Part shown: piece by piece, positions 41,265 through 57,937 of the stretch | How positions within the stretch are numbered: the stretch's first letter is position 1 | Layout: the number at the start of each line of letters is the position of its first letter | NCBI GenBank assembly: GCA_020851325.1 | Contig: JADZCY010000212.1 | Coordinates: 8,619 to 72,618 of the forward strand | DNA from: Acidobacteriota bacterium | GTDB lineage: Bacteria > Acidobacteriota > Vicinamibacteria > Vicinamibacterales > UBA2999 | Reading direction: 5' to 3' | Length of the DNA stretch: 64,000 nucleotides | Program-made: the position numbers and the translations under genes | The notes under the pieces: model-generated | Told to the model about the DNA's origin: nothing | Database searches by the model: none | Seen by the model: the letters and a program-made list of their open reading frames with translations, nothing else

Positions 41265-42482
41265 GTGGCCTATTTCACCCATCTCGAGTGTGCGTCCATC
41301 TGCGGCGCGGGACCGTTCGATCCGCGTGAGCGGCACTTTCTGTGTCCGTCCTGCGGCCTGCCGCTGCTGGCGCGCTACGATCTGACGGCGGCGCGCGCGT
41401 GGTCGCGTGATTCACTGGTCGGCCGCGAGCCGACGATGTGGCGGTATCGCGAGATGATGCCGCTGCTGCCGGGCGATGTCCCGGTGTCGCTGGGTGAAGG
41501 CTTCACGCCGCTGCGGCACGCGGAGCGGCTGGGGCAGTCACTCGGGCTGTCGCGGCTCTTCATCAAGGACGAGTCGCTCAATCCCACCACGTCGTTCAAG
41601 GCGCGCGGACAATCGGCGGCCATCACGCGCGCGAAGGCGCTGGGCGCGACGACGATTGCGCTGCCGACCGCGGGTAACGCCGGCAACGCGGCGGCGGCGT
41701 TTGCCGCGGCGGCGGGTCTTGCCTGTCAGGTGTTCATGCCGCGCGACGCCAAGCAGCCCTTCATCGACGAATGCCGCTTGTATGGCGCCACCGTGACGCT
41801 CGTCGACGGACTGATCACGGACGCCGGCCGCGCTGCCGCGGAGGCCGGCCGCGGCCTTGGCTGGTACGACGTCTCGACGCTGAAGGAACCGTACCGCGTC
41901 GAAGGCAAGAAGACGATGGGGTATGAACTCGCCGAGCAGTTGGAGTGGACGCTGCCCGACTGGATCATCTATCCCACAGGCGGCGGTACCGGACTCGTCG
42001 GCATGTGGAAGGCGTTTGCCGAGATGGAAGCCATTGGCTGGATCACGCCGGGACGGCGGCCGAAGATGGTGTCGGTGCAGGCCAGCGGCTGCGCGCCGAT
42101 CGTGCGCGCCTTCGAGACCGGCGCCGAGAAGGCGGCGCCGTGGGAGAACGCGCACACCAGCGCCGACGGCCTGCGCGTGCCGAAGGCGATCGGCGACTTC
42201 CTGATACTGCAGGCGGTGCGCGAGAGCGGCGGCACGGCGCTCGCCATCGACGACAGCGAGATGGTGCGCGACATGCTCGAGATCGGACGTCTCGAAGGCA
42301 TCAGCGCCGCGCCCGAAGGCGGCGCGTCACTCTCCGCCATCCGCGCGCTCGTCAACGACGGCCGCATCGGCGCCAACGACACCGTGGTGCTCTTCAACAC
42401 CGGCGGGGCACTCAAGTACCTCGACGTTCTAAAAGACCCGTCAATGACAGAAACATCGGCAATCGAGAGATCGGGAGATTGA
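41265..42482 (+). CDS. thrC: threonine synthase with N-terminal zinc-ribbon
   Basis: CASICGAGPFDPRERHFLCPSCGLPL (CxxC-x13-CxxC) followed by a PLP fold (NPTTSFKARG). Track ORF 41097.. begins inside repeat DNA, so the GTG at 41265 is the first start outside it. Exact start uncertain. Confidence 0.85.
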   Translation: MAYFTHLECASICGAGPFDPRERHFLCPSCGLPLLARYDLTAARAWSRDSLVGREPTMWRYREMMPLLPGDVPVSLGEGFTPLRHAERLGQSLGLSRLFIKDESLNPTTSFKARGQSAAITRAKALGATTIALPTAGNAGNAAAAFAAAAGLACQVFMPRDAKQPFIDECRLYGATVTLVDGLITDAGRAAAEAGRGLGWYDVSTLKEPYRVEGKKTMGYELAEQLEWTLPDWIIYPTGGGTGLVGMWKAFAEMEAIGWITPGRRPKMVSVQASGCAPIVRAFETGAEKAAPWENAHTSADGLRVPKAIGDFLILQAVRESGGTALAIDDSEMVRDMLEIGRLEGISAAPEGGASLSAIRALVNDGRIGANDTVVLFNTGGALKYLDVLKDPSMTETSAIERSGD

Positions 42483-42596
42483 GCGATTGTCTGCAATTGG
42501 CAATCGGCAATCTCTGATTCGCATTTCGAATCGCCGATTGCCCGATCGCCGATTGGCAACAATCGCCCAATCCCCCGATCCGTCAATCCGTGAATG
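42483..42596. repeat. CGATTG/CAATCG-family short-period repeat
   Basis: GAGCGATTGTCTGCAATTGGCAATCGGCAATCTCTGATTCGCATTTCGAATCGCCGATTGCCCGATCGCCGATTGGCAACAATCGCC.... Related blocks occur at 54993-55116 and 59650-59740. Confidence 0.7.
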
Positions 42597-43682
42597 CTAC
42601 GGCTCACCGAAGGAAATGCCGATCGCCCTGGCCGTGGCGAGCAGGTCGTAGTCGAGCGGCACGGTGCGGGTACGGCCGACCACATCCGCCAGCGGCACCG
42701 GCACCATGTCCGGCGGATGGTTCGCCACCATCTTGCCGAAGACGCCGCGGCGCAGTAGTTCCACCGCCTTGCCGCCCAGGCGCGTTGCGAGCACGCGATC
42801 GAACGGCGTCGGCGCGCCGCCGCGCTGCAGGTGGCCGAGCACGACGTAGCGCGCGTCCTTCCCCGTCATCTCTTCGAGCGCCGTCGCCACCGTGACGCCG
42901 ACGCCGCCGAGGCGCTCCACGTAGCCGGCGCGCGCCTGCTCGAGGACGACGCGTTCGCCGCCAATCGGTTTCGCGCCTTCCGCCACCACGACGATGCTGA
43001 ACTTCGCGCCAAGCGCGTCACGCCGACGCACGTGTTCGGCCACGCACTCGATGCTGTACGGAATCTCCGGCATCAGGATCACGTCAGCGCCGCCGCCGAC
43101 GCCCGCGTGCAGCGCGATCCAGCCGGCGTAGCGGCCCATCACCTCGACGACCATGATCCGCTTGTGCGCCTCCGCCGTGGAGTGCAGGCGATCGATCGCA
43201 TCGGCGGCAAATGACACCGCCGTATCGAACCCGAAGCACGTCGTCGTCCCGACGATGTCGTTGTCGATCGTCTTCGGCACGCCGACGAGCGGAATGCCCT
43301 TGAGGAAGAACTGGTGCGCGATGCCCAGCGTGCCGTCGCCGCCGATGGCGACGAGTGCGTCGAGTCCCATCTTGTGGAACGTCTCGACGACACGGTCCGA
43401 GTAATCCACCTTGCCGTTGGCGGTATCCGCCGGATACTCGAACGGGTTGCCGTGATTGGTGGTCCCGAGGATGGTGCCGCCCAGGCGCAGGATGCCGGTG
43501 ACGTCCTTCGGCGTCAGCGGCCGCGTCCGCGAGGGGTCGAGCAGTCCATCGAAGCTGTCTTCGAGGCCGATGACTTCGATGCCGGCGTTACAGGCCGCCT
43601 TGACGACGGCGCGGATGACTGCGTTGAGGCCGGGCGCGTCGCCGCCGCCGGTCAGGACACCAATCTTTCTCACTGGGGACAT
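42597..43682 (-). CDS. pfkA: 6-phosphofructokinase (PfkA family; ATP vs PPi specificity not decided)
   Basis: MSPVRKIGVLTGGGDAPGLNAVIRAVV...IGGDGTLGIA...PKTIDNDI...MGRYAGWIAL. ATG at 43682 confirmed. Confidence 0.9.
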   Translation of the reverse strand: MSPVRKIGVLTGGGDAPGLNAVIRAVVKAACNAGIEVIGLEDSFDGLLDPSRTRPLTPKDVTGILRLGGTILGTTNHGNPFEYPADTANGKVDYSDRVVETFHKMGLDALVAIGGDGTLGIAHQFFLKGIPLVGVPKTIDNDIVGTTTCFGFDTAVSFAADAIDRLHSTAEAHKRIMVVEVMGRYAGWIALHAGVGGGADVILMPEIPYSIECVAEHVRRRDALGAKFSIVVVAEGAKPIGGERVVLEQARAGYVERLGGVGVTVATALEEMTGKDARYVVLGHLQRGGAPTPFDRVLATRLGGKAVELLRRGVFGKMVANHPPDMVPVPLADVVGRTRTVPLDYDLLATARAIGISFGEP

Positions 43683-43750
43683 CGGGGTTGCCACTATAGC
43701 ATTCCGGCCGGAATGGCCGAGGTTGGAGGCGAAAGTGTGACGCAACACCG

Positions 43751-43759
43751 TGCTATACT
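43751..43759 (+). promoter_or_regulatory. candidate extended -10 (TGCTATACT) upstream of FN3 paralog 1
   Basis: TGnTATACT lies about 80 nt upstream of the ATG at 43840. No good -35. Pattern match only. Confidence 0.25.
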
Positions 43760-43839
43760 CCGACTCGGTTTTGCGCCCGCGGGGCCTCCCAGCCCCCTCG
43801 GATTCCAAACCCCAAACCTCTCCCCCAACGCTTGAAAGG

Positions 43840-45207
43840 ATGTTTGCGATGTTGGTGTGGGCAAAAACGGTGCGGGCGTGGACGGCATCCGGGTTGATGG
43901 CGCTGCTGCTCGGCCTCGGCGCGGTGGTTCTCCTGGCGGCGCCCGTGGCTCCCGCGCTCAACGCGCCGGCGGTATCGGGCCAGCGCGTCACGTTGTCGTG
44001 GAACGCGGTGCCGGGCGCCCTGGGCTATCGCCTCTCGGTGGGCGTCAACCCGAGCGCACCGGCATACGCGCAGAACGTCGGCCCGGCTACTTCCTACACA
44101 TTCGATTCGCCGTTCACCGGCACCGGCTGGGTGGCCGTGCAGGCGTACGACGCCTCGGGCCTCAGCCCGTACTCGAACGTCGTGCAACTGGTAATCGGCG
44201 GCGCGGCCGGCACACCCGCTGCCCCGCAGGATCTGCAGTACGGCATCAGCGGCCGGAACGTCGTGCTGTCGTGGCGCGCCGGCATGGGCGGCTCGGCGCC
44301 GCTCGGCGTGCTGCTCGAAGCCGGCACCAGTCCCGGGGCCGCCAACCTCGGCAGCATTCCGCTGCCCATCAGCACGCAGACCACGGTGCCGAACGTCCCG
44401 AACGGCACCTACTACGCGCGTGTCTACGCGGTGAACGCGTCGGGCCGCAGCGCACCGTCGAACGAAGTGCGCATCGACATGCCCGGTGGTGGCGGTCCCT
44501 GCGTGCCGCCGCCGGCGTCGTCACTCGCGGCGTCGGTGAATGGCCAGACCGTGGGCTTTGCCTGGTCGCCGGTGGTGGGTGTGGCCGGCTACAACCTCGA
44601 AGTGTCGCTGAGCCCGACATCGCCCGCCGTGCTGTCGCAGACGTTCGGCCCAGGCACGACAAGCTTTGCCTATCCCAATGCGCCGGCCGGCACCTACTAC
44701 GCCCGCGTTGTCACCGGCGCCGCCTGCGGCGCGCAGACGGGATCGAACGTGGTGCCGCTGACGGTGACGGGGCCGCCGCCGGGAACCGGTCCGCGCACGC
44801 CCAACCCGCCGCCGGGACAGCGCCTGCCGCTGCCGAACATGTCGAGCGTCGTCGAGGCGATCGCGCGTGCCTATCCGAACGAGCTGCGGAACTCGTGCCG
44901 CGAGCACGGCGGCAACAACGCCTGGATGTTCCGGCTGGTGCAGGAACTGCGTCGTCACGACACGCGGTGGGGGTTGAACTGGAAACGCGGCAACCGCGGC
45001 GACATGTCGCAGGATGCCATCGACTACAACTTCGGTTCAACGGCGGATGAAGACACGACGAATGTCTACATCATCGACGTCATCGGCGGGCACTGCGGAG
45101 GCAACCCCGGGCCGACGTGGATCGACCAGACGCAGGCCACGGCTGACAAGGGTGAGATTGGTCGCTGGACGCTGCAGCCGTACATCGCGGCGGGCGGACA
45201 ACCCTAG
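43840..45207 (+). CDS. secreted protein: 3 FN3-like modules + unplaced conserved C-terminal domain (paralog 1)
   Basis: Signal/TM N-terminus. Three modules of about 95 aa (..LSW..V.GA.GY.L......GTYYARV.A.N.SG.S..SN.V). Linker GPRTPNPPPGQRLPLP, then C-domain SCREHGGNNAWMF...RWGLNWKRGNRGDMSQD...IGGHCGGNP. AAGGA SD before the ATG. Confidence 0.75.
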   Translation: MFAMLVWAKTVRAWTASGLMALLLGLGAVVLLAAPVAPALNAPAVSGQRVTLSWNAVPGALGYRLSVGVNPSAPAYAQNVGPATSYTFDSPFTGTGWVAVQAYDASGLSPYSNVVQLVIGGAAGTPAAPQDLQYGISGRNVVLSWRAGMGGSAPLGVLLEAGTSPGAANLGSIPLPISTQTTVPNVPNGTYYARVYAVNASGRSAPSNEVRIDMPGGGGPCVPPPASSLAASVNGQTVGFAWSPVVGVAGYNLEVSLSPTSPAVLSQTFGPGTTSFAYPNAPAGTYYARVVTGAACGAQTGSNVVPLTVTGPPPGTGPRTPNPPPGQRLPLPNMSSVVEAIARAYPNELRNSCREHGGNNAWMFRLVQELRRHDTRWGLNWKRGNRGDMSQDAIDYNFGSTADEDTTNVYIIDVIGGHCGGNPGPTWIDQTQATADKGEIGRWTLQPYIAAGGQP

Positions 45208-45213
45208 GAGTCT

Positions 45214-45277
45214 GGTGGGCTGGGGGGCTGGAGGACTGGGGGCTCGAGGACTTGGGGGCCGGAGGCTGGAGAGCTGG
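45214..45277 (+). repeat. G-rich 8-bp-period repeat (same family as 20558)
   Basis: GGTGGGCTGGGGGGCTGGAGGACTGGGGGCTCGAGGACTTGGGGGCCGGAGGCTGGAGAGCTGG. Confidence 0.75.
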
Positions 45278-45411
45278 CCGCGCCTGAAGGCCGGAGAGCG
45301 ACAGGCCGAGAAGTCGGAAGCCACCCGGGGGATCGAGACCACTCCCCACTTTGTTCTGAACGTGTGTTGGTGCAACCGGGCGCCCGTGGCCCTGACCGAA
45401 AGGATGGCTGA

Positions 45412-46770
45412 ATGAAGAGACTGCAGTTCCCCCTGACTCACGTTGCCGCGGCCGTGCTGGCGGCGGTCGTGGGTGCGTCGGTGCTGACGCACGCGCAGGT
45501 GACCCCGCCGACGCTGACCGCGTCGGCCGTGGGTGCGACCGTAAACTTCTCGTGGACCCCGGTGGCCGACGCCACCGAATATGTGCTGCAGGCCGGCGTT
45601 GCGCCCGGCAACTACATCCTGACGGTCCCGGTGGGACTGACGACGGCAACGTCAGCGCAGGCACCCGCCGTCGGCACCTACTATGCGCGCGTCGGCGCCC
45701 GGACGCCGAGCGGCGATGTGTGGTCCGCCGGCATTCCCATCACGGTGACCGCGATGGTCGCGCCTCCGACGGCGCCCACGGCACTCACCACGTATCTGAA
45801 CGGACGGTCCGCGCTGATTACCTGGACTCCGGGCGTCGGCGGGGGCGCTCCGAGCGGCTATATCCTGCACGCCGGCACCACCCCGGGCGGCACGGAGCAC
45901 GGCGTGTTTCCGCTGGGCGCGACGCCGCAGTTGGCCGTGCCGAACCTCGGCGCCGGCGACTACCACCTGCGTCTCTTCGCGGTGAACGCCGGCGGTGTGA
46001 GCCCGGCGTCGAACGACACGCTGCTCAGCATGCCCCAGGGCGGCGGCTGCTCGGTGCCGCCGGCGCGCGACTTCACGTTCTTCTCATTCGGCCGCTTCGC
46101 GCAGTTCACGTGGCTGCCGGTGCCCGGCGCGTCGGGATACCGCATTGACGTGGCGACGTCGCCCGGCGGCGCGCCCGCAGCGTCGCAGACGTTCGCGGCG
46201 AACGCCGGGAACTGGAGCATTACCGGCGCTCCGCTCGGCACCTTCCACGCCAAACTGACTACCGCGGTGTCGTGCGGTCAGCAGGCGACGAGCGCGGAGA
46301 AGCCGATCGTCCTCGACGGTGCACCGCCACCGGGACCGCGCGCGCCCAATCCGGCACCCGGGCAGCGGCTGCCGTTCCCGTCCTGGGGCGAGGCCGTGGT
46401 CGAACAGCTCGCCGCCGAACGGCGGGACCTGCTCTTCCAGTCGTGCACCGAGCACGGCGGCAACAACCGCTTCATGTTCGAACTCGTCCGCCGTTTGCGC
46501 CAGCGTGACAACCGCTTCGGCCTGAATTGGAAGCGCGGCAACTACGGCGACCTGTCGCAGGACATCGTCAACTACAACTTCGGCAGCGAGCCGGACGAGG
46601 GCACCGAGAACGTCTACATCGTCGACATCATCGGCGGCCACTGCGGCTCGAATCCGTCGGCGGCGTGGATCAATCAAACCGACGCGACTCGCGCGGCGGG
46701 TACTAAAGGCGTGTGGACGCTGCTCCCGTACATGAACGCGGGGTTCCCGATCGTTTCCGATCAGCAGTAA
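45412..46770 (+). CDS. secreted protein: 3 FN3-like modules + same C-terminal domain (paralog 2)
   Basis: Signal peptide (..VLTHA-QV). Linker GPRAPNPAPGQRLPFP. C-domain SCTEHGGNNRFMF...RFGLNWKRGNYGDLSQD...IGGHCGSNP. Confidence 0.75.
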   Translation: MKRLQFPLTHVAAAVLAAVVGASVLTHAQVTPPTLTASAVGATVNFSWTPVADATEYVLQAGVAPGNYILTVPVGLTTATSAQAPAVGTYYARVGARTPSGDVWSAGIPITVTAMVAPPTAPTALTTYLNGRSALITWTPGVGGGAPSGYILHAGTTPGGTEHGVFPLGATPQLAVPNLGAGDYHLRLFAVNAGGVSPASNDTLLSMPQGGGCSVPPARDFTFFSFGRFAQFTWLPVPGASGYRIDVATSPGGAPAASQTFAANAGNWSITGAPLGTFHAKLTTAVSCGQQATSAEKPIVLDGAPPPGPRAPNPAPGQRLPFPSWGEAVVEQLAAERRDLLFQSCTEHGGNNRFMFELVRRLRQRDNRFGLNWKRGNYGDLSQDIVNYNFGSEPDEGTENVYIVDIIGGHCGSNPSAAWINQTDATRAAGTKGVWTLLPYMNAGFPIVSDQQ

Positions 46771-46876
46771 CCCGCCGCTGAACGTGCGAGATTTTATGGG
46801 GCCACCTCAACCGGGTGGCCCCATAATTGTCGGGGTTGCGAGGTCGCCGTGCCGGCGCCTCCTGGAGCCCGATCGC

Positions 46877-48211
46877 ATGAAGAAGACTTTGCTCGCGGCG
46901 CTGCTTGGCGCTGCCGCCCTCCTCGTCAGTCCGTCCTTCGCCCTCGCGCAGTCCGCGCCTGTCCTCACCGTCGATGTGTCCGGCAACAACGTCGGCGCGT
47001 CATGGACCGCTGTTGCCGGCTCCACCGGCTACCGCGTCGACGTCGGCACCTACTCGGCCGGCACCAACGTCATCTCCGCCACCATCAACGGACTCTCCGC
47101 CGGCGGCGCGCTCGGCGTCGGCACCTACTTCATTCGCGTCTACCCGGTCGCCGGCTCGACGCTCGGTCCGGTGTCCAACGAGGTGCAGTTCAACGTTGGC
47201 ACGCCGCGGCCGGGCGCGCCCATCGCGCCCGCCGCCACAATGGACGGCTCGACGCTGGTGTTCACGTGGGCGCCGCCGACCACGGGTGGCGCGCCGACGA
47301 CCTACGTCCTGCAGGCCGGGACGCAGTTCGACTGGGCCAACCTGGCGACGCTGAACGTCGGCAATGTCGCGACCTACTCGGTCCCGAACGTCGCCGGACT
47401 GTTGCCCGCGGGCACCTACTTCGCGCGCGTGATGGCCGCCAACGGCACCGGCGCCAGCGATCCGTCGGAGGAGATTGTGTTCACGATTGGCAATCTCCCC
47501 GGCGTGCCGACGCCGAATGCGCCGACCGTGAGCGGGAACAACGTCACGCTGTCGTGGAATCCGCCCGCCGGCGGCCTGCCTGTCACGAACTACCGCATCG
47601 AAGGTGCCTACGGCGACTACCGCAACCTCGGCACCGCCGCAACACTCGACGGCAGCGCGACGTCGTACTCGGCCAATCTGCCCAACGGCTCGTACTACTG
47701 GCGCGTGCGCGCCTTCAACGGCACCACGCCCGGCGCCGTGTTCGGCACCGCGTCGTTTGCCGTCGGGCCAACCGATCCGCCGCCGGCTGGTCCGCGCACG
47801 CCCAACCCGGCCACCGGCCGCCGGCTGCCCAAGCCTTCGTACGGCGAAAGCGTCGCCCGTGCCATGGCCACGGCGTATCCCTTCGATCTCGCCAACTCGT
47901 GCCACGAAACCGGCGGCACGAACCACTGGATGTTCAAGGTGATTCGTGAACTGCGCCACATCGACACGCGCTGGATTCTCAACTGGAAGCGCGGCAACAC
48001 CGGCGACCTCTCGCAGGACATCGCCAACTACAACTACGGATCGCTGCCGGACGAAGGCACGATTGACGTCTATCTGTGGGACATCATTGGCGGACACTGC
48101 GGCGGGCGTCCGACCTGGAACTGGTCGGACGTCACCGACGCCACGGCGCGCGGCAACACCATCGGCCGCGGCACGCTGCGCCCCTACATCGCCGCCGGCT
48201 ACACGCCGTAG
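46877..48211 (+). CDS. secreted protein: 3 FN3-like modules + same C-terminal domain (paralog 3)
   Basis: MKKTLLAALLGAAALLVSPSFALA-QS. Linker GPRTPNPATGRRLPKP. C-domain SCHETGGTNHWMF...RWILNWKRGNTGDLSQD...IGGHCGGRP. Confidence 0.75.
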   Translation: MKKTLLAALLGAAALLVSPSFALAQSAPVLTVDVSGNNVGASWTAVAGSTGYRVDVGTYSAGTNVISATINGLSAGGALGVGTYFIRVYPVAGSTLGPVSNEVQFNVGTPRPGAPIAPAATMDGSTLVFTWAPPTTGGAPTTYVLQAGTQFDWANLATLNVGNVATYSVPNVAGLLPAGTYFARVMAANGTGASDPSEEIVFTIGNLPGVPTPNAPTVSGNNVTLSWNPPAGGLPVTNYRIEGAYGDYRNLGTAATLDGSATSYSANLPNGSYYWRVRAFNGTTPGAVFGTASFAVGPTDPPPAGPRTPNPATGRRLPKPSYGESVARAMATAYPFDLANSCHETGGTNHWMFKVIRELRHIDTRWILNWKRGNTGDLSQDIANYNYGSLPDEGTIDVYLWDIIGGHCGGRPTWNWSDVTDATARGNTIGRGTLRPYIAAGYTP

Positions 48212-48231
48212 TTCAGATTGGGCTCAAGATT

Positions 48232-48370
48232 GGGGTCAGGTCACGATTCGGGAGTCCGGCGACGACTGACGACTCACGAATCGTGACCTGACCCCGGCTC
48301 GTCGTGACCCCGTGACCCCGGCTCGTCGTGACCCCGGCTCGTCGTGACTCACGAATCGTGACCTGACCCC
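48232..48370 (+). repeat. perfect 19-bp inverted repeat with a duplicated right arm, plus a 16-mer tandem repeat
   Basis: GGGGTCAGGTCACGATTCG (48232-48250) is complementary to CGAATCGTGACCTGACCCC at both 48277-48295 and 48352-48370. GGCTCGTCGTGACCCC x3 lies between the two right arms. Confidence 0.85.
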
Positions 48371-48403
48371 CAGGCTATAGACCCCCGGCTATACGGCGCG
48401 GTT

Positions 48404-48412
48404 TGGTACAAT
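48404..48412 (+). promoter_or_regulatory. candidate extended -10 (TGGTACAAT) upstream of the matrixin-like gene
   Basis: TGnTACAAT lies 40 nt upstream of the ATG at 48452. No -35 match. Pattern match only. Confidence 0.25.
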
Positions 48413-48451
48413 GACCCATCCCGCGACCGTCCCCGCCGCGGCCTGAACTCC

Positions 48452-50440
48452 ATGCCAATTCGCCTGCTCGTCGCGCTGCTCTTCACCCTGCTCGTCCAGA
48501 CGCCGCAGGCTCAGCAACCGCCGTCCGCCGTGGCCGACCTTGCCGACGCCTCTGCCGTGGTCGTGACGGGTGCCGTCGAGGCGATGGCGGCTGGCGAGGA
48601 TCAGGGCGCCATTTACACCTACGTCACCGTCCGCGTGGACGAGGTGCTGAAGGGCGCCGTCCCGGCGCGCACGGTGGTGGTGAAACAACTCGGCGGCACG
48701 CTGCCGCAGCTGGGCCTCTACATTGCCGATCAGGCGCGCTTTGCCGCCGGCGAGTCGGTACTGCTCTTCCTCAACAGCCGCCCGCGCGATGGTTCGCTCT
48801 ACACGGTCGGCCTCGGCCGCGGCAAGTGGACGGTGCTGCCCGACATCCGCGGCGGCGGGCTGGCCGCGATCCAAGGCTCGCTCGCAACGGGGCTTGACGA
48901 TACGACACGCGCCGCGATCGCCGCGTCGCGCCCGCACGCCGCGAACTTCGTCGCCATCCCGGCCGACGCGCCGACGCCGGACAGCCCCGGCTACACGTTC
49001 ATCCCCGGCAGCGAAGGCGGTCCCGCGCGCTGGCATCAGGCCGACGATGGCGTGAGCGTGCCGGTGGACTTCCAGACGATTCCCGGCGGCTTGCCCGGCG
49101 ACGCCAGCGCTGCACTCAATCGCGCCATCGGCGCCTGGAACGGCGTCGGCTCGCAACTGCAGCTCGCCCGCGCGCAGACCGGCCCGCACACCTGCCCATC
49201 CACCGGATTCAGCGGCAACGGACGCATCGGCCTTTACTGGAACGACCCCTGCGGCGAAATTCCCGACGGCGACTCCGCCACCTTCGGCATGGGCGGCGGC
49301 TTCTTCACGCCCGGCTTCCAGAAGACGATCAACGGCGTCACGTTCAACGCGTTCGTGCAGGGCCTGGCGATCCTGAACAACAGCGGACCGCACCTCGCCA
49401 CGGCGGCGTGTCTGGAAGACGCGTTGACGCACGTGCTCGGTCACGCGGTGGGCCTCGGGCACTCCGGCGACGGCAACGCCGTGATGTATACGACGCTGCG
49501 CTCCAGTTGCACTGGCGGATCCACCGGGCTCGGCACCGACGATGTGAACGGGCTGGGTGCGATTTATCCGGACATCCCGAGTGGCGGCCTGCCACCGCAG
49601 GCGCCAACGGCCATCACCAATACCGTGTCGCTCGACTCGGTAACGCTGTCGTGGACGCCGGCCACCAGCGGCGGGCCGGCGCAGAGCTACATCCTCGAGG
49701 CCGGGACGTCGGAGCAGCAGCCGAACAACATCGCGGTGCTGCCGCTGCCGAACGCCAACACATCGACGGTGGTCGGCGCGGTGCCGCCCGGCGTCTACTA
49801 CGTCCGCGTTCGCGCTCGCAACGTGCTTGGCACGAGCGCGCTGTCGCCGGCCACGGTGGTGACCGTCGGCCCGTGTCAGGCGCCCGCCGCACCGACAGGA
49901 CTGGCTTACACGAACGCCGACGGCTTTGTCGGCATCACGTGGAACCCGCCGGCCTCCGGCGTCACGCAGGGCTACCTGCTGTCGGCTGGGATGTCGCCCG
50001 GTGCATCCGACGCGCTGGTGCTGCCGCTCGGTCCGACGCCGGCCTTCGCGGGCACGGCGCCCCCCGGTGATTACTACGTGCGTGTCGCGGCGCGAAACTC
50101 CTGCGCCACGGGTCCCGCGTCGTCGCCCGATCTCGTCGTCCAGGTACGCGCCTGCACCGCGCCGCCGCTCGCGCCGGCGAATCTCTCGTTCACGCGCGCC
50201 GGCAACACCGTGACGCTCAACTGGACCGGGCCCACATCCGGTAACCTGCCGTCCCGGTATCAGATTCACGCCGGCAGCGGGCCTGGTGCCTCCAACATCC
50301 TCGTCTACGAAACGACCAACCCGGCCACGTCGTTCCAGGCCTTTGCACCCGCCGGCACCTATTACGTCCGCATCGTCAGCCGCAACAACTGCGGCTCGAG
50401 CAGTACCGCGTCCAACGAAGTGCAGGTGGTGGTGCCATGA
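48452..50440 (+). CDS. secreted matrixin (M10)-like protein with Glu-to-Val in the zinc motif, plus 3 FN3-like modules
   Basis: Signal peptide. Motif THVLGHAVGLGHSGDGNAVMY fits HExxHxxGxxH-S-x5-A-x-M-Y except that the catalytic E is V (codon GTG at 49433-49435). Three C-terminal modules have the same flavour as in the paralogs. Confidence 0.75.
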   Translation: MPIRLLVALLFTLLVQTPQAQQPPSAVADLADASAVVVTGAVEAMAAGEDQGAIYTYVTVRVDEVLKGAVPARTVVVKQLGGTLPQLGLYIADQARFAAGESVLLFLNSRPRDGSLYTVGLGRGKWTVLPDIRGGGLAAIQGSLATGLDDTTRAAIAASRPHAANFVAIPADAPTPDSPGYTFIPGSEGGPARWHQADDGVSVPVDFQTIPGGLPGDASAALNRAIGAWNGVGSQLQLARAQTGPHTCPSTGFSGNGRIGLYWNDPCGEIPDGDSATFGMGGGFFTPGFQKTINGVTFNAFVQGLAILNNSGPHLATAACLEDALTHVLGHAVGLGHSGDGNAVMYTTLRSSCTGGSTGLGTDDVNGLGAIYPDIPSGGLPPQAPTAITNTVSLDSVTLSWTPATSGGPAQSYILEAGTSEQQPNNIAVLPLPNANTSTVVGAVPPGVYYVRVRARNVLGTSALSPATVVTVGPCQAPAAPTGLAYTNADGFVGITWNPPASGVTQGYLLSAGMSPGASDALVLPLGPTPAFAGTAPPGDYYVRVAARNSCATGPASSPDLVVQVRACTAPPLAPANLSFTRAGNTVTLNWTGPTSGNLPSRYQIHAGSGPGASNILVYETTNPATSFQAFAPAGTYYVRIVSRNNCGSSSTASNEVQVVVP

Positions 50441-51741
50441 GCCGAGCGCGCGTGCGGTGGTCGTTGTCGCTGGTCGCGCTGGTGATGCCGCTGGCGGCGG
50501 CCATGCCCGCCGTGCTGGCGGGTGATCAATCGGCGCCTGCTCCCACTGCTGTCGCCGCTGACGCGCCGACCTACGTGCGCGACATCGCGCCGCTCCTGAA
50601 CGAACACTGCGTCGAATGTCATCGCCCCGGCCAGATGGCGCCGATGTCGTTTCTCACCTACGAGGCCACGCGTCCGTGGGCGCGCGCCATCCAGCGTCAG
50701 GTGGTCGGCCGGACGATGCCGCCATGGGGTGCGGATCCGGCAGTGGGCCACTTCGCGAACGATCCGAGTCTGTCCGCCGACGCCATTTCGACGATCACGC
50801 GCTGGGTGGACGCCGGAGCGCCGCGCGGTGAGGGCGCGCCGCCCGCGCCGCCGGCCGCACAGTCCGACGAATGGCGCATCGGCACGCCGGATCTGATCCT
50901 GTCGATGGACGAGTCCTTCCCCATTCCCGCGACGGGGATCATCGAATACCAGTACTTCAAGGTGCCGACGCACTTGAAGGAAGACCGCTGGGTGACCGCC
51001 GTGGAGATTCGTCCCGGCGAGCCGCGGGCCGTGCATCACCTCCGCATCTTCGCGCAAGGGCCTGAACGCGACACGCGACCCGTCCCGACCGGCCGCGAGA
51101 TGTATTGCATCGACGAAGTGTGTGGCAATCTCGAACCGCCGCTGATTGGCTGGGGACCGAACCTCGCCTCCGTCGCGGTCGGCACGCGGCCCGAAGTGTA
51201 CGAGCTCGGCTCCGGCAAGCTGCTGAAGGCCGGCTCGGTGCTGACGCTGCACACGCACTACACCTCGTTTGGCGAAGCCAGCACGGACCGCACGCGCGTC
51301 GGTCTCCGCTTCGCGAAGACGCCGCCGAAGGTGCAGTTGAAAACGGTGTCGATGGCGCAGGAACAGTTCGCGATTCCGCCGGGCGATGCCAATCATGTCG
51401 TGAACGCCTCGCTCGAGTTCCGCGAACCGGTGCAGCTGCACAGTCTCGGCCCGCACGCGCACCTGCGTGGCCGCAGCTGGCGCTTCTGGCTGCAGACGCC
51501 GGACGGCACGCGCACCGAACTCCTCTCCGTCCCGCGCTTCGACTTCGACTGGCAGTTGCACTACGTGTTCAAGGATCCGATTGCGGTTCCGGCCGGCTCG
51601 AAGCTCGAAGGCACGGCGACGTTCGACAACTCGCCGGGGAACGTCAACAACCCCGACGCCACCGCCACCGTGCGCTGGGGCCCGCTGACGGTGGACGAGA
51701 TGATGTTCGCGTCGGTCGTCTACAGCGCCGACAAGAAATAG
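50437..51741 (+). CDS. heme-c domain fused to PHM/DBH-like copper type II monooxygenase fold
   Basis: Signal peptide. CVECH (50608-50622) followed by MPPW. His/Met pattern is HH(200-201), HTH(272-274), HAH(340-342), EMM(421-423), with spacing close to the PHM CuH/CuM ligands. ATGA overlap with the upstream gene. Confidence 0.7.
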   Translation: MSRARVRWSLSLVALVMPLAAAMPAVLAGDQSAPAPTAVAADAPTYVRDIAPLLNEHCVECHRPGQMAPMSFLTYEATRPWARAIQRQVVGRTMPPWGADPAVGHFANDPSLSADAISTITRWVDAGAPRGEGAPPAPPAAQSDEWRIGTPDLILSMDESFPIPATGIIEYQYFKVPTHLKEDRWVTAVEIRPGEPRAVHHLRIFAQGPERDTRPVPTGREMYCIDEVCGNLEPPLIGWGPNLASVAVGTRPEVYELGSGKLLKAGSVLTLHTHYTSFGEASTDRTRVGLRFAKTPPKVQLKTVSMAQEQFAIPPGDANHVVNASLEFREPVQLHSLGPHAHLRGRSWRFWLQTPDGTRTELLSVPRFDFDWQLHYVFKDPIAVPAGSKLEGTATFDNSPGNVNNPDATATVRWGPLTVDEMMFASVVYSADKK

Positions 51742-51744
51742 CGG

Positions 51745-51903
51745 GACACAGGAAACCGCGAAGACACGAAGGGGCACGACCCTTCGACGTCGCTCAGGGC
51801 AAGCGAACGCGAAGGACGCAAAGGTTGCAGAGGGGCCAGACCAGTCTTTGTGCCCTTCGCGCCCTTCGCGGTCAGCAGAGGATCTTCGTGCCATCGTGGT
51901 TTC
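51745..51903 (+). repeat. CACGAAGG-family element with conserved core, copy A (upstream of the SDR gene)
   Basis: Core ACCCTTCGACGTCGCTCAGGGCAAGCG (51779-51805), GCCCTTCGCGCCCTTCGCGG, and CTTCGTGCCATCGTGGTTTC. Confidence 0.75.
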
Positions 51904-51921
51904 ATTGCCGGAGGCCACACC

Positions 51922-52833
51922 ATGCCGACTGTTGTTCGCGCCCACCGTTGGTTCTGGCTCAGCACTGTCGTCGTTGTCGCCGTCGCCGCGGGTTTGCGGT
52001 GGACGTCGGCGCAGGCACCAGCCGACAATGCCGACGTGAAGGGCAAGATCGTTTTGATTACCGGGTCCACCGATGGACTCGGGCGTGAAGTGGCACGGCG
52101 CACGGCGGCGCGTGGCGCGCATGTCATCGTCCACGGACGCAATCAGGAACGCGGCAAGGCCGTGGTGGATGAAATCACGAAGGACGGCGCCGGCACGGCG
52201 CGGTTCTATGCGGCCGACTTCGCTCTGCTGGATGACGTGCGGACGTTTGCCGCCGCCATCCGGAGGGACTACGACCGCATCGACGTGCTGGTGAACAACG
52301 CCGGCGTGCTGCTGCGCGATCGGCAGGTGAGCCGCGATGGGCACGAGCTGCAGTTCGCGGTGAACTATCTCGCCGGCTTCCTGCTCACGCGCACGCTGCT
52401 GCCGATCATCGGCGTCAACTCTCCGGCGCGCATCATCAACGTCTCGTCACTCGCGCAGTCGCCGATCGACTTCGACGACGTGATGCTCGAGCGGCCCGGC
52501 CGCGCCGCGCAGGGCTATGGACAGAGCAAGCTGGCGCAGATCCTCTTCACGATGGATCTCGCCACGGAACTCAAAGATCGCCCCATCATCGTCACCGCTC
52601 TCCATCCGGCGACGATGATGGATACGACGATGGTGCGGCAGTCGGGCATGCCGTCGCGTTCCACCGTTGATGAGGGCGCCACGGCGCTGATGCAGCAGAT
52701 TGCCGGCGCGACGGTCGAGAGCGGCCGCTTCTACAACGGCCTGAACCCCGCGCGTCCGAACGCACAGGCCGAAGACGTCACCGCCCGCGCGAAGCTGCGC
52801 GAACTGAGCGTGAAGCTGACGGGAGTGAAATAG
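51922..52833 (+). CDS. short-chain dehydrogenase/reductase with N-terminal TM/signal segment
   Basis: KGKIVLITGSTDGLGREVA (TGxxxGxG), NNAG, and YGQSKLA (YxxxK). GGAGG 7 nt upstream of the ATG at 51922. Confidence 0.85.
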   Translation: MPTVVRAHRWFWLSTVVVVAVAAGLRWTSAQAPADNADVKGKIVLITGSTDGLGREVARRTAARGAHVIVHGRNQERGKAVVDEITKDGAGTARFYAADFALLDDVRTFAAAIRRDYDRIDVLVNNAGVLLRDRQVSRDGHELQFAVNYLAGFLLTRTLLPIIGVNSPARIINVSSLAQSPIDFDDVMLERPGRAAQGYGQSKLAQILFTMDLATELKDRPIIVTALHPATMMDTTMVRQSGMPSRSTVDEGATALMQQIAGATVESGRFYNGLNPARPNAQAEDVTARAKLRELSVKLTGVK

Positions 52834-52854
52834 ACGTTTGCCGGGACGCTTAAA

Positions 52855-53003
52855 GACACCACGAAGACCCGAAGGATCACGACCCTTCGACGTCACTCAG
52901 GGCAAGCGGCCGCGAAGCACACAAAGGAGAATGCTCTCTTTGTTTTCGTGCCCTTCGCGCCCTTCGCGGACGACGAAGGCTCGCTTCGTGCCTTCGTGGT
53001 TTC
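52855..53003 (+). repeat. CACGAAGG-family element with conserved core, copy B (downstream of the SDR gene)
   Basis: Core ACCCTTCGACGTCACTCAGGGCAAGCG (52882-52908), GCCCTTCGCGCCCTTCGCGG, and CTTCGTGCCTTCGTGGTTTC. Same orientation as copy A. Confidence 0.75.
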
Positions 53004-54065: not shown

Positions 54066-54992
54066 ATGGCCAGCCTCGCTGTCGTCATCCCGGTCTATCA
54101 GGCCGAAGCGTCGCTGCGCCCGCTGTCGGACGAACTGATCCCCGCGCTCTCCTCGCTCGGCGTCGACTGGACCGTCTGGTTCATCGACGATGGCAGCACG
54201 GATGGGAGCTGGGCGGAGGTGGAACGCCTGGTGTCGGACGAGCCGCGCTACCGCGGCGTCCGGCTGATTCGCAACTTCGGCGAGCACGTCGCCATCACCG
54301 CCGGTCTCGATCGTGTGGAGGCGGACTACGTCGTGATCATGGCGTGCGATCAGCAGGACGATCCGTCGGCGATTGCCGCAATGCTGGGCGCCGCGCGCGG
54401 TGGCGCGGACCTCGTGCTCGTGCGCCGCATGCAGCGGCGTGACGCCTTCGTCAAACGTCTGCTGGCGCGCCTCTTCTACGCCTTCATCTCGCTGCTCTTC
54501 AGCATCGACTACGACTATCGCGTCGGCAACTTCCGGCTGCTGACGCGGCGCGCCGTCGAGTATTTCCGCAAGCACCGCGAACGCATGCGCAACGTCAACG
54601 CGATCATGGCGCTGATGGGCGTGCGCACCGCCTACGTCGACGTGCCGCACCGCGCCCGCCGGCACGGGCGTAGCAGCTACACGCTGATGCGCTCGGCGCG
54701 CATGGCGGCGTCGGTCGTCATCGGCTACTCCGACATCCCGCTCGTCGTCTCCGGCGCCATCGGTATCGTCCTCATGGCGGCGGCGGCGCTGTGGTCGATC
54801 GCCGTCGCCATCGGCCTCGCCGGTCCCGCGTCGGACGTGCGCATCGCCATCGCCGCGGTGGCCGGCGTCGGCGGTCTCATCCTCCTCAACCTCGGCATCG
54901 TCGGCGCCTATCTCGGCCGCGCCGCGCGCGAAGCCAAGGAGCGGCCGATGTATTTCGTCGGCGACACACTCAATGTGGAGGACGGGCATTGA
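54066..54992 (+). CDS. family 2 glycosyltransferase (polyprenyl-phosphate sugar transferase-like, two C-terminal TMs)
   Basis: LAVVIPVYQAE...WFIDDGSTDGS...RNFGEHVAITAGL...IMACDQQDDP. Hydrophobic C-terminus. Confidence 0.8.
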   Translation: MASLAVVIPVYQAEASLRPLSDELIPALSSLGVDWTVWFIDDGSTDGSWAEVERLVSDEPRYRGVRLIRNFGEHVAITAGLDRVEADYVVIMACDQQDDPSAIAAMLGAARGGADLVLVRRMQRRDAFVKRLLARLFYAFISLLFSIDYDYRVGNFRLLTRRAVEYFRKHRERMRNVNAIMALMGVRTAYVDVPHRARRHGRSSYTLMRSARMAASVVIGYSDIPLVVSGAIGIVLMAAAALWSIAVAIGLAGPASDVRIAIAAVAGVGGLILLNLGIVGAYLGRAAREAKERPMYFVGDTLNVEDGH

Positions 54993-55116
54993 CGGATTGA
55001 CGAATCGGGAGATTGGCGATTGTTGCCGATCGGCAACTGACGATTGGCGATTCGATTCGGCGATTGCTCGATTGCCCATCGGCAACAATCGCGAAATCCG
55101 CCGATCGAGCAATCAC
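54993..55116. repeat. CGATTG/CAATCG-family short-period repeat
   Basis: GATTGACGAATCGGGAGATTGGCGATTGTTGCCGATCGGCAACTGACGATTGGCGATTCGATTCGGCGATTGCTCGATTGCCCATCGGCAACAATCGCG. Confidence 0.7.
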
Positions 55117-55184
55117 CCCTGCCCTCCGCCTCCCGCCTCCCGTGTCACGCTCGGGTTGGTGTAAGATAACGAAGTTCGTTCGAA

Positions 55185-55260
<76 letters not shown>

Positions 55261-55261
55261 A

Positions 55262-55286
55262 CCTCCGCTCACGATTCAGGCGGAGG
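55262..55286 (+). terminator. hairpin directly after tRNA-Ala
   Basis: CCTCCGC-tcacgattcag-GCGGAGG followed by TTGT. Weak T-tract. Confidence 0.35.
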
Positions 55287-55289
55287 TTG

Positions 55290-55420
55290 TCTCGCCGAAG
55301 CCGCCGCGCGGCGAAGGCGGACAGCCCTCCAGTCCTCCAGTCCTCCAGCCCTCCAGTCCTCCAGTCCCCCGTCCTTTCTGTCCCCGCCGAAGCCGCTTGC
55401 GGCGAAGGCGCGCTGAACCT
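55290..55420. repeat. C-rich 8-bp-period repeat (reverse orientation of the GGCTGGAG family) flanked by a CGCCGAAGCCGC..GGCGAAGGCG direct repeat
   Basis: CCCTCCAGTCCTCCAGTCCTCCAGCCCTCCAGTCCTCCAGTCCCCC (55324-55370), between two copies of CGCCGAAGCCGCnnnnGGCGAAGGCG. Confidence 0.7.
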
Positions 55421-55437
55421 GCTATGGTGATTAGACC

Positions 55438-56103
55438 GTGCGTCTCCTTGCCCTGGCTTTCGCATCGCTGCTGGTCGCGACACCACTCGCGCAGGCGCCT
55501 CCGCCGGACGCCGCCGCGTTGGCCACGCGCGTGCAGGCGCGCTACGGCGCCATCAAGGACTTCGAGGGCGCCTTCGTTCAGTCCTACGAAGGCGGCGTGC
55601 TCCGGACGAAGACCACCGAGAGCGGCACTTTCCAGGTTCGCCAACCCGGCCAGTTCCGGTTCCTCTACACCAAGCCCGAGCGCAAGGAGTTCGTCTCCGA
55701 CGGCTCTTCGATCTACACCTACCTCGTCGTCGACAAGCAGGTGATCATCACCCCGGCGCCTGGCCCCGGCGAAGCGACGACACCGGCGTTGTTCCTGGCC
55801 GGCCGCGCCAACATGGCCCGCGATTTCACGGCGACGTTCACGCCGCTGCCCGGCGCTGCACAGGGGCTGCAGACGCTGCGCCTCGATCCACGCAAGCCCG
55901 ACCCCGACTACGAGTGGTTCGGCATCGGCGTCGACCCCGCGTCCCTGCAGATCCGCTTTCTCGTCGCCGTGGACCGCCAGGGCGGCCGCTCCGCGTTCAC
56001 TTTCAGCAACCTGAAGGAAAATGCGGGACTGACCGATAACACGTTCCGGTTCCGTATCCCCCGCGGGGTCGATGTCGTCCAGCATGGCGCCCGTCCCAAG
56101 TAA
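55438..56103 (+). CDS. lolA: outer-membrane lipoprotein carrier protein LolA-like
   Basis: Signal peptide, then RVQARYGAIKDFEGAFVQSYEGGVLRTKTTESGTFQVRQPGQFRFLYTKPERKEFVSDGSSIYTY. GTG start. Confidence 0.8.
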   Translation: MRLLALAFASLLVATPLAQAPPPDAAALATRVQARYGAIKDFEGAFVQSYEGGVLRTKTTESGTFQVRQPGQFRFLYTKPERKEFVSDGSSIYTYLVVDKQVIITPAPGPGEATTPALFLAGRANMARDFTATFTPLPGAAQGLQTLRLDPRKPDPDYEWFGIGVDPASLQIRFLVAVDRQGGRSAFTFSNLKENAGLTDNTFRFRIPRGVDVVQHGARPK

Positions 56104-57937
56104 CCGTCGCGGCACCCTCACGGTGCTCGCCCTCGTCTTGTCGCTGGCCTTCTCCGCCTGCGCGACAACGCGGAGCCTGTCCGATGCGCGGTTGGCGGAA
56201 AGCCGCCAGGACTACGACACCGCGGTCGCCGAATACACGCGCGCGCTCCGTCAGAACCCGAACAGCAAGGACGCCCGCTTCGGCCTCGAACGCGCCCGCC
56301 TGCGCGCCTCGCAGGATCACTTTGCCGCCGGCCGGCGGCTCGCCGCGCTCGGCAAACTCGAAGAGGCGGTCGTCGAGTATCAGATTGCCGCCGAGCTGAG
56401 CCCGCTGAACGGCGACATCCAGAACGAACTCCGCACCGTGCGCGGCCAGTTGCGCACACAGGTGGCCGTGCGCGAGGATGGCAAGACGCATCTCGAAGCG
56501 TTGATCGATCAGAGCCGCGGTGCGCCGCTGCCGGGCACTGAACTGCCGAGCGACGTCACGCTGCCCGAAACCCTGGTGTTCCGCGAGGCCAGCGCCCGCG
56601 ACGTCTACTCCGCCATCGCGCGCTTTGCCGGCATCAGCATCGCCTTCGATCCGACGTATCGCGATCAGTCGCTGTCCATCGACCTGCGGCACGCGCCGCT
56701 CGATCAGGCACTCAACTCCGTCGCCTCGGCCACGCGCACGTTCTGGCGCGTCACCACGCCGGGGACGGTGACCATCGTCCCCGACACGCAGGCGAAGCGT
56801 CGTGAGTACGAAGAGGAAGTCGTCCGCACCTTCTACCTGAGCAACGCCGACCTCAAGGAAACCATCGACATCCTCCGCATCGTCGTCGACGCGCGCCGCA
56901 TTGCGCCGCTGTCGGCCACCAACGCCATCACGATCAAGGACACGCCGGAGCGCATCACCGCGGCCGGACGCATCATTTCGGCCATCGACAAGGCGCGGCC
57001 CGAGGTGATCATCGACGTCGAACTGCTGGAGGTGGACCGCACGCACCTCAACGAGTTCGGCCTGCAGCTCGCCTCGCCGAGCACCTCGCCGACCGGCATC
57101 AACGGTCAGGTGGACGTCAATCGCGAGGGCCTGTCGCTGCGCGACCTGATGAAGCTGACGCAGTCGGACGTCTATCTGACGAACCTGCCGGCGCTCTATT
57201 ACCGCCTGCTGAAGACGGACAGCGCGACGCGCGTGCTGGCCAACCCGCAGCTCCGCACCTCCGAAGGCATGCCGGCGCAGGCGCGCTTCGGCGAACGCGT
57301 GCCGGTGCCGGTCACCACCTTTGCGCCGATTGCCTCGGGCGGCGTGCAGACGCAGCCGATCGTCTCCTACAACTACGAGAACATCGGCGTGAACATCGAC
57401 ATCACGCCGCGCACGCATCATGACGATGCGGTGTCGCTGGCGGTGAAGATCGAGTTGAGCAGCATCTCGGGCGCCGGGTTTGGCGGACTGCCGACGTTCG
57501 GCAACCGCTCGATTCAGACGGTGATTCGTCTGAAGGACGGTGAGACCAACATGCTCGCCGGTCTCATCCGCGACGAAGAGCGCCGCTCGCTCGCCGGCGT
57601 GCCGGGCCTCAGCGACATCCCCATCGTCGGCCGGCTGTTTGCCTACAACCGCAAGGAAACGCAGGAAACCGACATCGTCCTGACGCTGACGCCGCGGATT
57701 GTGCGCGTGCTGGATCTCACGGCCACGGATCTCGCGGCGTTCAAGGTAGGCCGCGATGGCACTCCCGGCAGCGTCGAACTGCCGCCGCTGCCGCTCCCCG
57801 CGCCGCAGGCCCCCGCGCCGGCCCGTCCGCCAGGTGTTGCGCCGTCAGCCGGCGACCCGCCGCAGGGCGCGCCTGGTACCACGCCGGCGACGCCAATCAG
57901 GCCGCCGAAGCCGCCGCCACCGATGGGCCACAGATAG
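56072..57937 (+). CDS. lipoprotein secretin (type II/III secretion system family) with N-terminal TPR region and Pro-rich tail
   Basis: Lipobox LAFSAC, TPR-like helices, and a secretin C-domain (LANPQLRTSEGMPAQARFGERVPVPV...FGNRSIQTVIRLKDGETNMLAGLIRDEERRSLAGVPGLSDIPIVGRLF...IVLTLTPRIV). Overlaps the lolA 3' end. Start is 56072 or 56084. Confidence 0.85.
   Translation: MSSSMAPVPSNRRGTLTVLALVLSLAFSACATTRSLSDARLAESRQDYDTAVAEYTRALRQNPNSKDARFGLERARLRASQDHFAAGRRLAALGKLEEAVVEYQIAAELSPLNGDIQNELRTVRGQLRTQVAVREDGKTHLEALIDQSRGAPLPGTELPSDVTLPETLVFREASARDVYSAIARFAGISIAFDPTYRDQSLSIDLRHAPLDQALNSVASATRTFWRVTTPGTVTIVPDTQAKRREYEEEVVRTFYLSNADLKETIDILRIVVDARRIAPLSATNAITIKDTPERITAAGRIISAIDKARPEVIIDVELLEVDRTHLNEFGLQLASPSTSPTGINGQVDVNREGLSLRDLMKLTQSDVYLTNLPALYYRLLKTDSATRVLANPQLRTSEGMPAQARFGERVPVPVTTFAPIASGGVQTQPIVSYNYENIGVNIDITPRTHHDDAVSLAVKIELSSISGAGFGGLPTFGNRSIQTVIRLKDGETNMLAGLIRDEERRSLAGVPGLSDIPIVGRLFAYNRKETQETDIVLTLTPRIVRVLDLTATDLAAFKVGRDGTPGSVELPPLPLPAPQAPAPARPPGVAPSAGDPPQGAPGTTPATPIRPPKPPPPMGHR

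Follow-up and report, generated by a model that had tools for sequence, protein, structure and literature searches.

A conserved matrixin-like protein without the catalytic glutamate from Vicinamibacterales, a candidate bacterial pseudopeptidase

The stretch of DNA analysed here (hereafter the window) comprises 64,000 nucleotides of an Acidobacteriota genome (GTDB lineage Vicinamibacteria, Vicinamibacterales, UBA2999; assembly GCA_020851325.1, contig JADZCY010000212.1, positions 8,619 to 72,618, forward strand) and carries, between three tandem genes for FN3-bearing proteins and a gene for a putative secreted haem c protein (Table 1), an open reading frame (ORF) for a protein of matrixin type in which the zinc-binding motif of the metzincin peptidases has Val in place of the general-base Glu. 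The codon-position GC content of this ORF (0.66/0.57/0.86) is typical of genuine genes in the window, and its product is identical to an NCBI entry from an acidobacterial metagenome-assembled genome (MAG), MCC7125111.1, which is named ‘matrixin family metalloprotease’. We observed that the loss of the Glu is fixed in a clade of orthologs (the Val clade) under purifying selection, and we consider the protein a probable pseudopeptidase.

Table 1. Features of the Glu-less matrixin-like gene, its product and its surroundings (positions count from the first letter of the window; those preceded by a locus handle belong to relatives; FN3-CTD, FN3 modules followed by a C-terminal domain).
Feature	Position	Strand	Remarks
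Glu-less matrixin-like gene	48452-50440	+	intact ORF, 662 aa, ATG start; stop codon 50438-50440
Signal peptide, aa 1-20, MPIRLLVALLFTLLVQTPQA	48452-48511	+	hydrophobic helix aa 2-14 in the model; presumed cleavage site
N-terminal beta-barrel domain, aa ~25-160	48524-48931	+	model pLDDT >90; common to HExxH relatives
Linker motif P170-A-D172 (family P-x-E/D)	48959-48967	+	9 residues before Y181
Predicted matrixin-type catalytic-domain fold, aa ~188-375	49013-49576	+	Foldseek, hhalign, dN/dS
Zinc-binding motif HVLGHAVGLGH (H327/H331/H337)	49430-49462	+	sequence and alignment
Val328 (GTG), general-base Glu position	49433-49435	+	direct codon reading
Met345 of the Met-turn AVMY	49484-49486	+	invariant, 83/83 sequences
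FN3-like module 1, aa 381-472	49592-49867	+	no Cys pair; AlphaFold beta-sandwich and Pfam
FN3-like module 2, aa 476-566	49877-50149	+	Cys475/Cys551 pair, starting one codon upstream of the span
FN3-like module 3, aa 570-662	50159-50437	+	Cys568/Cys647 pair, starting two codons upstream of the span
Three tandem FN3-CTD paralogs	43750-45207, 45412-46770, 46784-48211	+	each with signal peptide, three FN3-like modules and ~125-aa C-terminal domain
C-terminal domains of the paralogs	~44803-45204, 46360-46746, 47789-48208	+	within the FN3-CTD ORFs
Haem-c/PHM-like gene	50437-51741	+	434-aa secreted product; ATG overlaps the matrixin stop (ATGA)
Downstream protease genes in relatives	L005 9916-11715; L006 9734-11587, 11750-13084; L007 10055-11962		
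Conserved housekeeping block	36964-43991, 54066-57937		rplM-rpsI-rpsB-tsf-pyrH-frr, PLP-dependent (pyridoxal phosphate) enzyme gene, pfk; downstream GT2, lolA, TPR-secretin gene

Active-site motif and fold

Read from position 49430, the DNA gives CAC GTG CTC GGT CAC, with GTG as codon 328. The encoded residues 327-346 are HVLGHAVGLGHSGDGNAVMY, directly preceded by LEDALT, and the metzincin consensus HExxHxxGxxH is altered in them at a single functional position, in that HVLGHAVGLGH keeps the three His and the Gly and has Val328 in place of the Glu. The Met-turn is present as A-V-M345-Y (A-L-M-Y-P in the matrix metalloproteinases, MMPs, the Pro being absent in the Val clade). The residue that follows the third His is Ser in matrixins, Pro in serralysins, Glu in astacins and Asp in adamalysins; here it is the matrixin-specific Ser (S338; Ser in 95% of the Val clade), and together with the A-x-M-Y turn it places the site, as read from its residues, with the matrixins rather than with the serralysins, astacins or adamalysins. 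Sequence profiles agree with this placement, the Pfam family PF00413 (Peptidase_M10) being matched by aa 321-372 with 30.9 bits (cut-off 24), albeit over profile positions 108-158 of 159 only, and the PDB sequences matched by the same segment being MMP-1, -7, -12, -3 and -10. No second metzincin motif was found in a genuine gene across the whole window.

AlphaFold models, built with the family alignment for the full-length protein and for aa 1-380, reached a predicted local distance difference test (pLDDT) score of 91 in both cases. In the full-length model three beta-sandwich modules occupy approximately aa 381-472, 476-566 and 570-662, and the Pfam fn3 profile matches this C-terminal part with 58 bits. 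A Foldseek search with the full-length model returned FN3 tandem matches only, and aa 1-380 were then modelled separately: the best 50 matches of this second model were all MMP catalytic domains (MMP-1, -3, -7, -8, -9, -12 and -13; best match MMP-1 in 2j0t), with target-normalised template modelling (TM) scores of 0.65-0.79 and coverage of the whole target domain. Furthermore, an hhalign comparison of the family profile with proMMP-1 aligned residues 98-269 with 98% probability, from the mature N-terminus (Y181 opposite MMP-1 F100, and GGPARW opposite EGNPRW) to the C-terminal helix. The models thereby predict that the complete MMP-type catalytic domain fold (five-stranded sheet and three helices) is retained, and because HVLGHAVGLGH lies inside a domain that both Foldseek and hhalign align full-length to MMP catalytic domains, it is not a chance match.

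Apart from the Glu, the domain departs from the MMPs in its structural-zinc site, which is absent (in the hhalign alignment MMP-1 H168, D170, H183 and H196 stand opposite G, I, D and F); of the six His in the catalytic domain three are the catalytic-site ligands. Two Cys pairs (248/267 and 320/353) are conserved in the domain, and these probably stabilise it in place of the structural zinc. A cysteine-switch prodomain is likewise lacking: neither PRCG, PRC nor RCG occurs anywhere in the 662 residues, and an unrelated beta-barrel precedes the catalytic domain.

The first-pass annotation, made from the sequence alone, had described a matrixin-like domain that lacks only the general-base Glu, and the agreement of Pfam, Foldseek and hhalign with the reading of the motif bears this out. 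Its further statements also held: a GTG replaces the Glu codon when the DNA is read directly, the three zinc-ligand His (H327, H331 and H337) and the Met-turn (M345) are in place, the cysteine switch is missing, and all three FN3-like modules (two of them, modules 2 and 3, with a Cys pair) are of the same type as those of the upstream paralogs (31-41% identity, E 1e-12 to 1e-4).

The N-terminal barrel is a family trait, with K78, G81, G82, Q94, P111, D113 and G124 invariant in all 83 aligned sequences, HExxH and Glu-less alike. The Pfam domain NtA, matched below its cut-off by 5 of 13 members with E 4e-4 at best, hints at a weak similarity to the NtA/TIMP-like OB fold, and the sole match of the barrel profile among PDB sequences was an SSB OB-fold (E 1.3); a homolog search with the barrel alone retrieved nothing beyond fragments from its own family. 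A prodomain, an inhibitor or a binding module are candidate roles for it. At the presumed end of the preceding signal peptide, A20 and Q21 are conserved within the Val clade.

Conservation and history of the glutamate loss

The motif was read in each of the 120 homologs listed by a search with aa 1-379. Approximately 65 of them, at about 50-76% identity, carry H-V-x-x-H; smaller clades carry HG, HN, HK, HT or HM, and the canonical HExxH appears in relatives at 35-40% identity. In a conservation alignment of 83 sequences (40 of them from the Val clade) Val328 is present in 40/40 Val-clade members, its codon varying synonymously among orthologs (GTG and GTC), and H327, H331, G334, M345, C320, C353 and Y372 are invariant throughout (83/83). 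The first-pass annotation had proposed a comparison with orthologs as the way to tell a conserved substitution from a strain-specific one; Val328 proved fixed across the ortholog clade and is therefore neither strain-specific nor an assembly error.

Within the Val clade the mean pairwise identity is 64% for the catalytic domain (70% from the active-site helix to the Met-turn) and 53% for the N-terminal domain, no other domain being better conserved than the catalytic one, and in the segment that follows the Met-turn (TLR) R350 is found in 100% of members. The ratio of non-synonymous to synonymous substitution rates (dN/dS) is about 0.13 for the closest ortholog pairs, with unsaturated dS values of 0.5-0.9. 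These observations show that the metal site, the fold, the Met-turn and the Gly-rich cleft edge strand are under purifying selection and that the constraint has not been relaxed. Judged by its sequence, the protein fits the pattern of a pseudopeptidase: it is homologous to a peptidase family with an essential residue gone, the loss is conserved, and the gene is under selection and no pseudogene.

The third ligand (position 337) is exclusively His or Asp among the homologs and switches several times on the tree within the Glu-less clade, CAC/CAT (His) being one base away from GAT (Asp). Asp in this position (HVLGHAxGLGD) was seen in the homologs P0026, P0029, P0030, P0032, P0037, P0041, P0043 and P0044, in P0046, P0050, P0052, P0053, P0056, P0060, P0064 and P0066, and at loci L002 and L010. 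A parallel is offered by snapalysin and ADAMDEC1, in which Asp serves as the third zinc ligand.

A comparison of acidic-residue conservation between the Glu-less and the HExxH clades found no acidic residue conserved specifically in the Glu-less group. The suggestion of the first-pass annotation that an acidic residue of EDALTH might stand in for the missing base was not sustained: E322 varies between E, Q and R among orthologs, and D323 (95% in the Val clade) is not compensatory, because its conservation drops to about 50% in the remaining Glu-less clades and the HExxH clades have it just as often. A P-x-E/D motif in the linker ahead of the catalytic domain is conserved in every Glu-less clade, and in a first alignment it seemed specific to them. 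P-x-E is found likewise in HExxH homologs of Blastocatellia and other groups, so that the motif is ancestral and its D/E172 was rejected as a relocated base. It lies 9 residues ahead of Y181 (the residue aligned to the mature N-terminus of MMP-1, F100), a spacing that differs from that of the cysteine switch by one residue, and P170-x-E/D172 may, on this positional likeness, be an Asp/Glu-switch latency element that caps the zinc.

On the contigs of clade representatives the V, G, N and K forms share one chromosomal slot, and for this reason we regard them as positional orthologs. The order of the slot is rpsB-tsf-pyrH-frr, a PLP-dependent enzyme gene, pfk (opposite strand), one to three FN3-CTD genes and the Glu-less matrixin gene, beyond which lie a GT2 gene, lolA and a secretin gene; the order in the window is identical throughout. 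An HExxH member on the same 3.7-Mb contig as a Gly form occupies a different locus, where it exists in three tandem copies adjoining TonB-dependent receptors. At this locus (L004 6033-11707, on the contig of L005) the three HExxH paralogs (588, 588 and 571 aa; N-terminal barrel, matrixin domain and FN3) also adjoin a BlaI/BlaR-like gene pair; they are probably the proteolytically active branch of the family, which would serve nutrient acquisition.

In a taxonomic scan with one genome per GTDB species the Glu-less forms (V, L, G and N) occurred only in MAGs labelled Vicinamibacterales or Acidobacteriota, and the more distant homologs (from Blastocatellia, Chloracidobacterium, Myxococcota, Binatia, Rokuibacteriota and others) had HExxH in all cases. 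As every more distant homolog carries HExxH, the Glu is the ancestral state, which the present ortholog group has lost; the shared slot suggests, on the basis of synteny rather than of a tree, that it was lost once.

The surrounding genes

The FN3-CTD genes accompany the Glu-less form closely: a tblastn search with their C-terminal domain found them immediately upstream at 15 of the 17 Glu-less loci, and at no HExxH locus. The C-terminal domain had no Pfam, NCBIfam or PDB-sequence match, and an exhaustive profile search collected 977 cluster representatives of its family at E <= 1e-3. In ten members that were scanned the domain stands C-terminal to FN3, TIG or Ig_Rha78A_N modules or is the sole domain found; its invariant polar residues are S-C, R, D, R, N, K-R, N, S, D, Y, D, D, G-H-C-G, W and T. 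On the grounds of this linkage the upstream FN3-CTD proteins are candidate partners of the Glu-less matrixin.

The gene that follows differs between genomes (reprolysin-like, S8 subtilisin, acetyltransferase-like or haem-c/PHM-like). In the window it encodes a protein that carries a CxxCH haem motif (CVECH) and whose C-terminal part weakly matches copper type II ascorbate-dependent monooxygenases (PHM/DBH-like); no NCBIfam name was returned for it, and an ortholog in this slot was found only in L001, about 190 bp behind the Glu-less gene. In L005 and L006 an intact reprolysin-like protease (HELGHNFGARH and HEMGHNEGSHH, respectively) with two FN3 modules is encoded next, by a gene whose start overlaps the stop of the Glu-less gene; S8 subtilisin genes are present in L006 and L007, the L007 subtilisin bearing FN3 modules. 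As far as gene content tells, the locus collects secreted proteins that bear the same type of FN3 module. L005 and L007 also have a gene for a PMT-family glycosyltransferase inserted upstream. A scan of positions 43500-53000 for promoters and terminators returned nothing that exceeded the shuffled expectation.

Interpretation and comparison with known systems

The above results directly support an old loss of the Glu, purifying selection on the gene, the MMP-type fold and the linkage to neighbouring genes, and on these we build the reading that we favour and hold to be probable, with appreciable room for doubt, namely that the protein is a secreted, zinc-binding and proteolytically inactive MMP homolog (i.e. 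a pseudopeptidase) that binds a ligand instead of cutting it. The ancestor would have combined an OB-like N-terminal domain, a matrixin domain with a normal HExxHxxGxxH site and FN3 modules, and in one Vicinamibacterales-type lineage the copy at the fixed slot (frr, PLP-enzyme gene, pfk and FN3-CTD genes) would have lost its general-base Glu. Selection would since have held the fold, the His/His/His(Asp) site, the Met-turn and the Gly-rich cleft edge strand, and the former Glu position would have diversified to Val, Leu, Gly, Asn, Lys or Thr. Metzincin-type peptide hydrolysis should be abolished in these proteins, because no general base is left to activate the zinc-bound water. We infer that zinc still occupies the site and that the cleft and metal most likely hold a ligand uncut, or keep the protein permanently zymogen-like by holding its own linker Asp/Glu; the three FN3 modules would probably anchor the protein to whatever surface or partners the co-encoded FN3 proteins bind, and a non-catalytic binding or scaffold role within this protein set seems likely.

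A more specific version of this reading, which we put forward tentatively and regard as rather unlikely in all its details, is that the protein serves solely as a non-catalytic partner in a secreted system of Vicinamibacterales not described so far, in which its intact zinc site and cleft clamp with high affinity a peptide segment or a metal-coordinating side chain of the co-encoded FN3-CTD proteins (or of the neighbouring FN3-bearing proteases) in order to hold, present or regulate it. The zinc in the pseudo-active site of Shh is bound by an Asp of HIP, and if the clamp exists, it would be comparable to this pair, and the protein would be the first matrixin-type pseudoprotease from bacteria to have a defined partner.

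Several observations weigh against the favoured reading. Inactivity is deduced from the established mechanism of metzincins; zinc ligands and a cleft strand that are so strictly conserved would also fit an enzyme that still acts at the metal; and a Val frequency of 100% in the main clade exceeds what a merely non-catalytic position would need. Moreover, two Glu-less loci (L010 and L011) have no upstream FN3-CTD gene, the linkage may in part stem from inherited gene order and not from an operon, because the locus lies within a conserved housekeeping block, and the neighbour-joining tree does not unite all Glu-less clades and leaves one versus several losses unsettled.

Among the rival explanations, a sequencing or assembly error or a recent pseudogene is refuted: it has in its favour only the prior consideration that GAG and GTG are one A-to-T change apart, and it is contradicted by dozens of independent assemblies with Val at 50-76% identity, by the identical NCBI protein, by the intact 662-residue ORF, by the dN/dS of 0.13 and by a catalytic domain that is at least as conserved as any other. 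A working metallopeptidase, which would rely on a non-canonical base (D323, the linker D/E172 or a substrate carboxylate) or on base-free zinc-hydroxide chemistry, would account for the strong selection on the metal ligands, on the Met-turn and on the edge strand of the cleft, and could draw on a D323 that stands one helix turn ahead of H327 in 95% of the Val clade or on the acidic linker residue near the position equivalent to the cysteine switch. We nevertheless judge it quite unlikely, given that mutation of the metzincin Glu to Ala, Gln or Val abolishes nearly all activity, that none of the replacements seen across the orthologous clades (V, L, G, N, K and T) is a carboxylate base, and that in homologs with a normal Glu D323 is just as frequent and the linker P-x-E also occurs.

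An unlikely alternative is a protein that remains a zymogen for good, with the linker D172 capping the zinc, a cleft that never opens, a purely structural metal and a function that resides in the N-terminal barrel and the FN3 modules. The presence of P-x-E/D in every Glu-less clade at one residue from the cysteine-switch spacing speaks for it, as do the segment before this motif, which is modelled at pLDDT ~91 and forms a beta-bridge, and the missing catalytic Glu, which makes self-activation impossible. Karilysin, a bacterial MMP, uses an aspartate switch. Latency of this kind is known in metallopeptidases, and one paper discusses it for an astacin and mentions karilysin as well (PMC9629494). 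On the other side, the pLDDT drops to ~70 at residues 171-180, and a sealed cleft is harder to square with the conserved cleft strand and post-Met-turn segment (TLR, R350). Last, the metal site might have been turned to a non-peptidase use in the periplasm or outside the cell (another zinc-dependent hydrolysis, metal sensing or metal sequestration), as the strictly kept His/His/His(Asp) site and, both here (where the genes overlap) and in L001, the adjoining haem c/copper-monooxygenase-like gene might suggest; but the Glu-less clades show no new conserved polar residues around the site, the downstream gene differs between genomes, and we know of no precedent for such a use in the matrixin fold, so that we consider it very improbable.

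Pseudoenzymes are well studied in eukaryotic metalloprotease families (ADAMs, M14 and M16), and pseudopeptidases as such are not new; for a conserved Glu-less bacterial matrixin lineage we found no prior description, and searches of the literature turned up nothing specific on matrixins that lack the Glu or on pseudo-metalloproteases in bacteria. A 2024 review of pseudopeptidases includes no M10 member and hardly any from bacteria, and treats prokaryotic ones only as M16B homologs (PMC11266112), and a 2025 phylogeny of bacterial MMPs deliberately dropped sequences without HEXXHXXGXXH (PMC12587646). The finding is useful as an annotation correction: counts of proteolytic capacity from soil Acidobacteriota genomes include proteins that are probably unable to cut, because databases name them ‘matrixin family metalloprotease’. 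It also offers a natural experiment, in which a zinc site, a Met-turn and a cleft have long been kept without the base and could show to what uses besides hydrolysis a metzincin site can be put; the HExxH paralogs with the same architecture in the same genomes supply a comparison set, and the linkage to the large FN3-CTD family supplies a concrete candidate partner.

With the matrixins (MEROPS M10A, PF00413) the protein shares, as far as models and alignments tell, the fold (TM up to 0.79 to MMP-1), the HxxxHxxGxxH-S motif, the A-x-M-Y turn and, in comparison with MMP-1, the N-terminal P-x-R-W segment and the D-D-x-x-G-x-x-x-I-Y C-terminal helix. It differs from them by the Val in place of Glu and by the lack of structural-zinc ligands, in whose stead it has the two conserved Cys pairs (presumably disulfides); from the MMPs it differs further in that an N-terminal barrel of ~135 aa is found instead of the three-helix prodomain with PRCGxPD, and three FN3 modules replace the hemopexin domain. 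Bacterial karilysin is likewise without a cysteine-switch prodomain. The Acidobacteriota HExxH paralogs (e.g. P0114 and its two tandem neighbours at L004) have the same barrel-linker-matrixin-FN3 layout at 35-40% identity and can share a genome with the Glu-less form, but they keep the Glu and lie at other loci, by TonB-dependent receptors and with no upstream FN3-CTD gene.

The closest parallel to the lesion itself is ADAM7, whose motif (HQLGHNLGMQHD) keeps the three His and the Met-turn and has lost only the Glu, and which is treated as a pseudopeptidase (Table 2 in PMC11266112), whereas most other ADAM pseudopeptidases have lost zinc ligands too (PMC11266112). Both proteins are extracellular and multidomain, and ADAM7 acts by binding; it belongs, however, to the adamalysin family M12B and is eukaryotic and membrane-anchored. 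In the M16B pairs (the alpha and beta subunits of the mitochondrial processing peptidase and two-gene bacterial operons) a dead homolog stands beside an active peptidase and is needed for substrate handling (PMC11266112). At L005 and L006, where the Glu-less gene overlaps the gene for an intact reprolysin-like protease, the arrangement is similar, with the differences that here the neighbour, presumed active, comes from another family and is absent from the window, and that the zinc site, lost in the M16 alpha subunit, is kept in the Glu-less matrixin.

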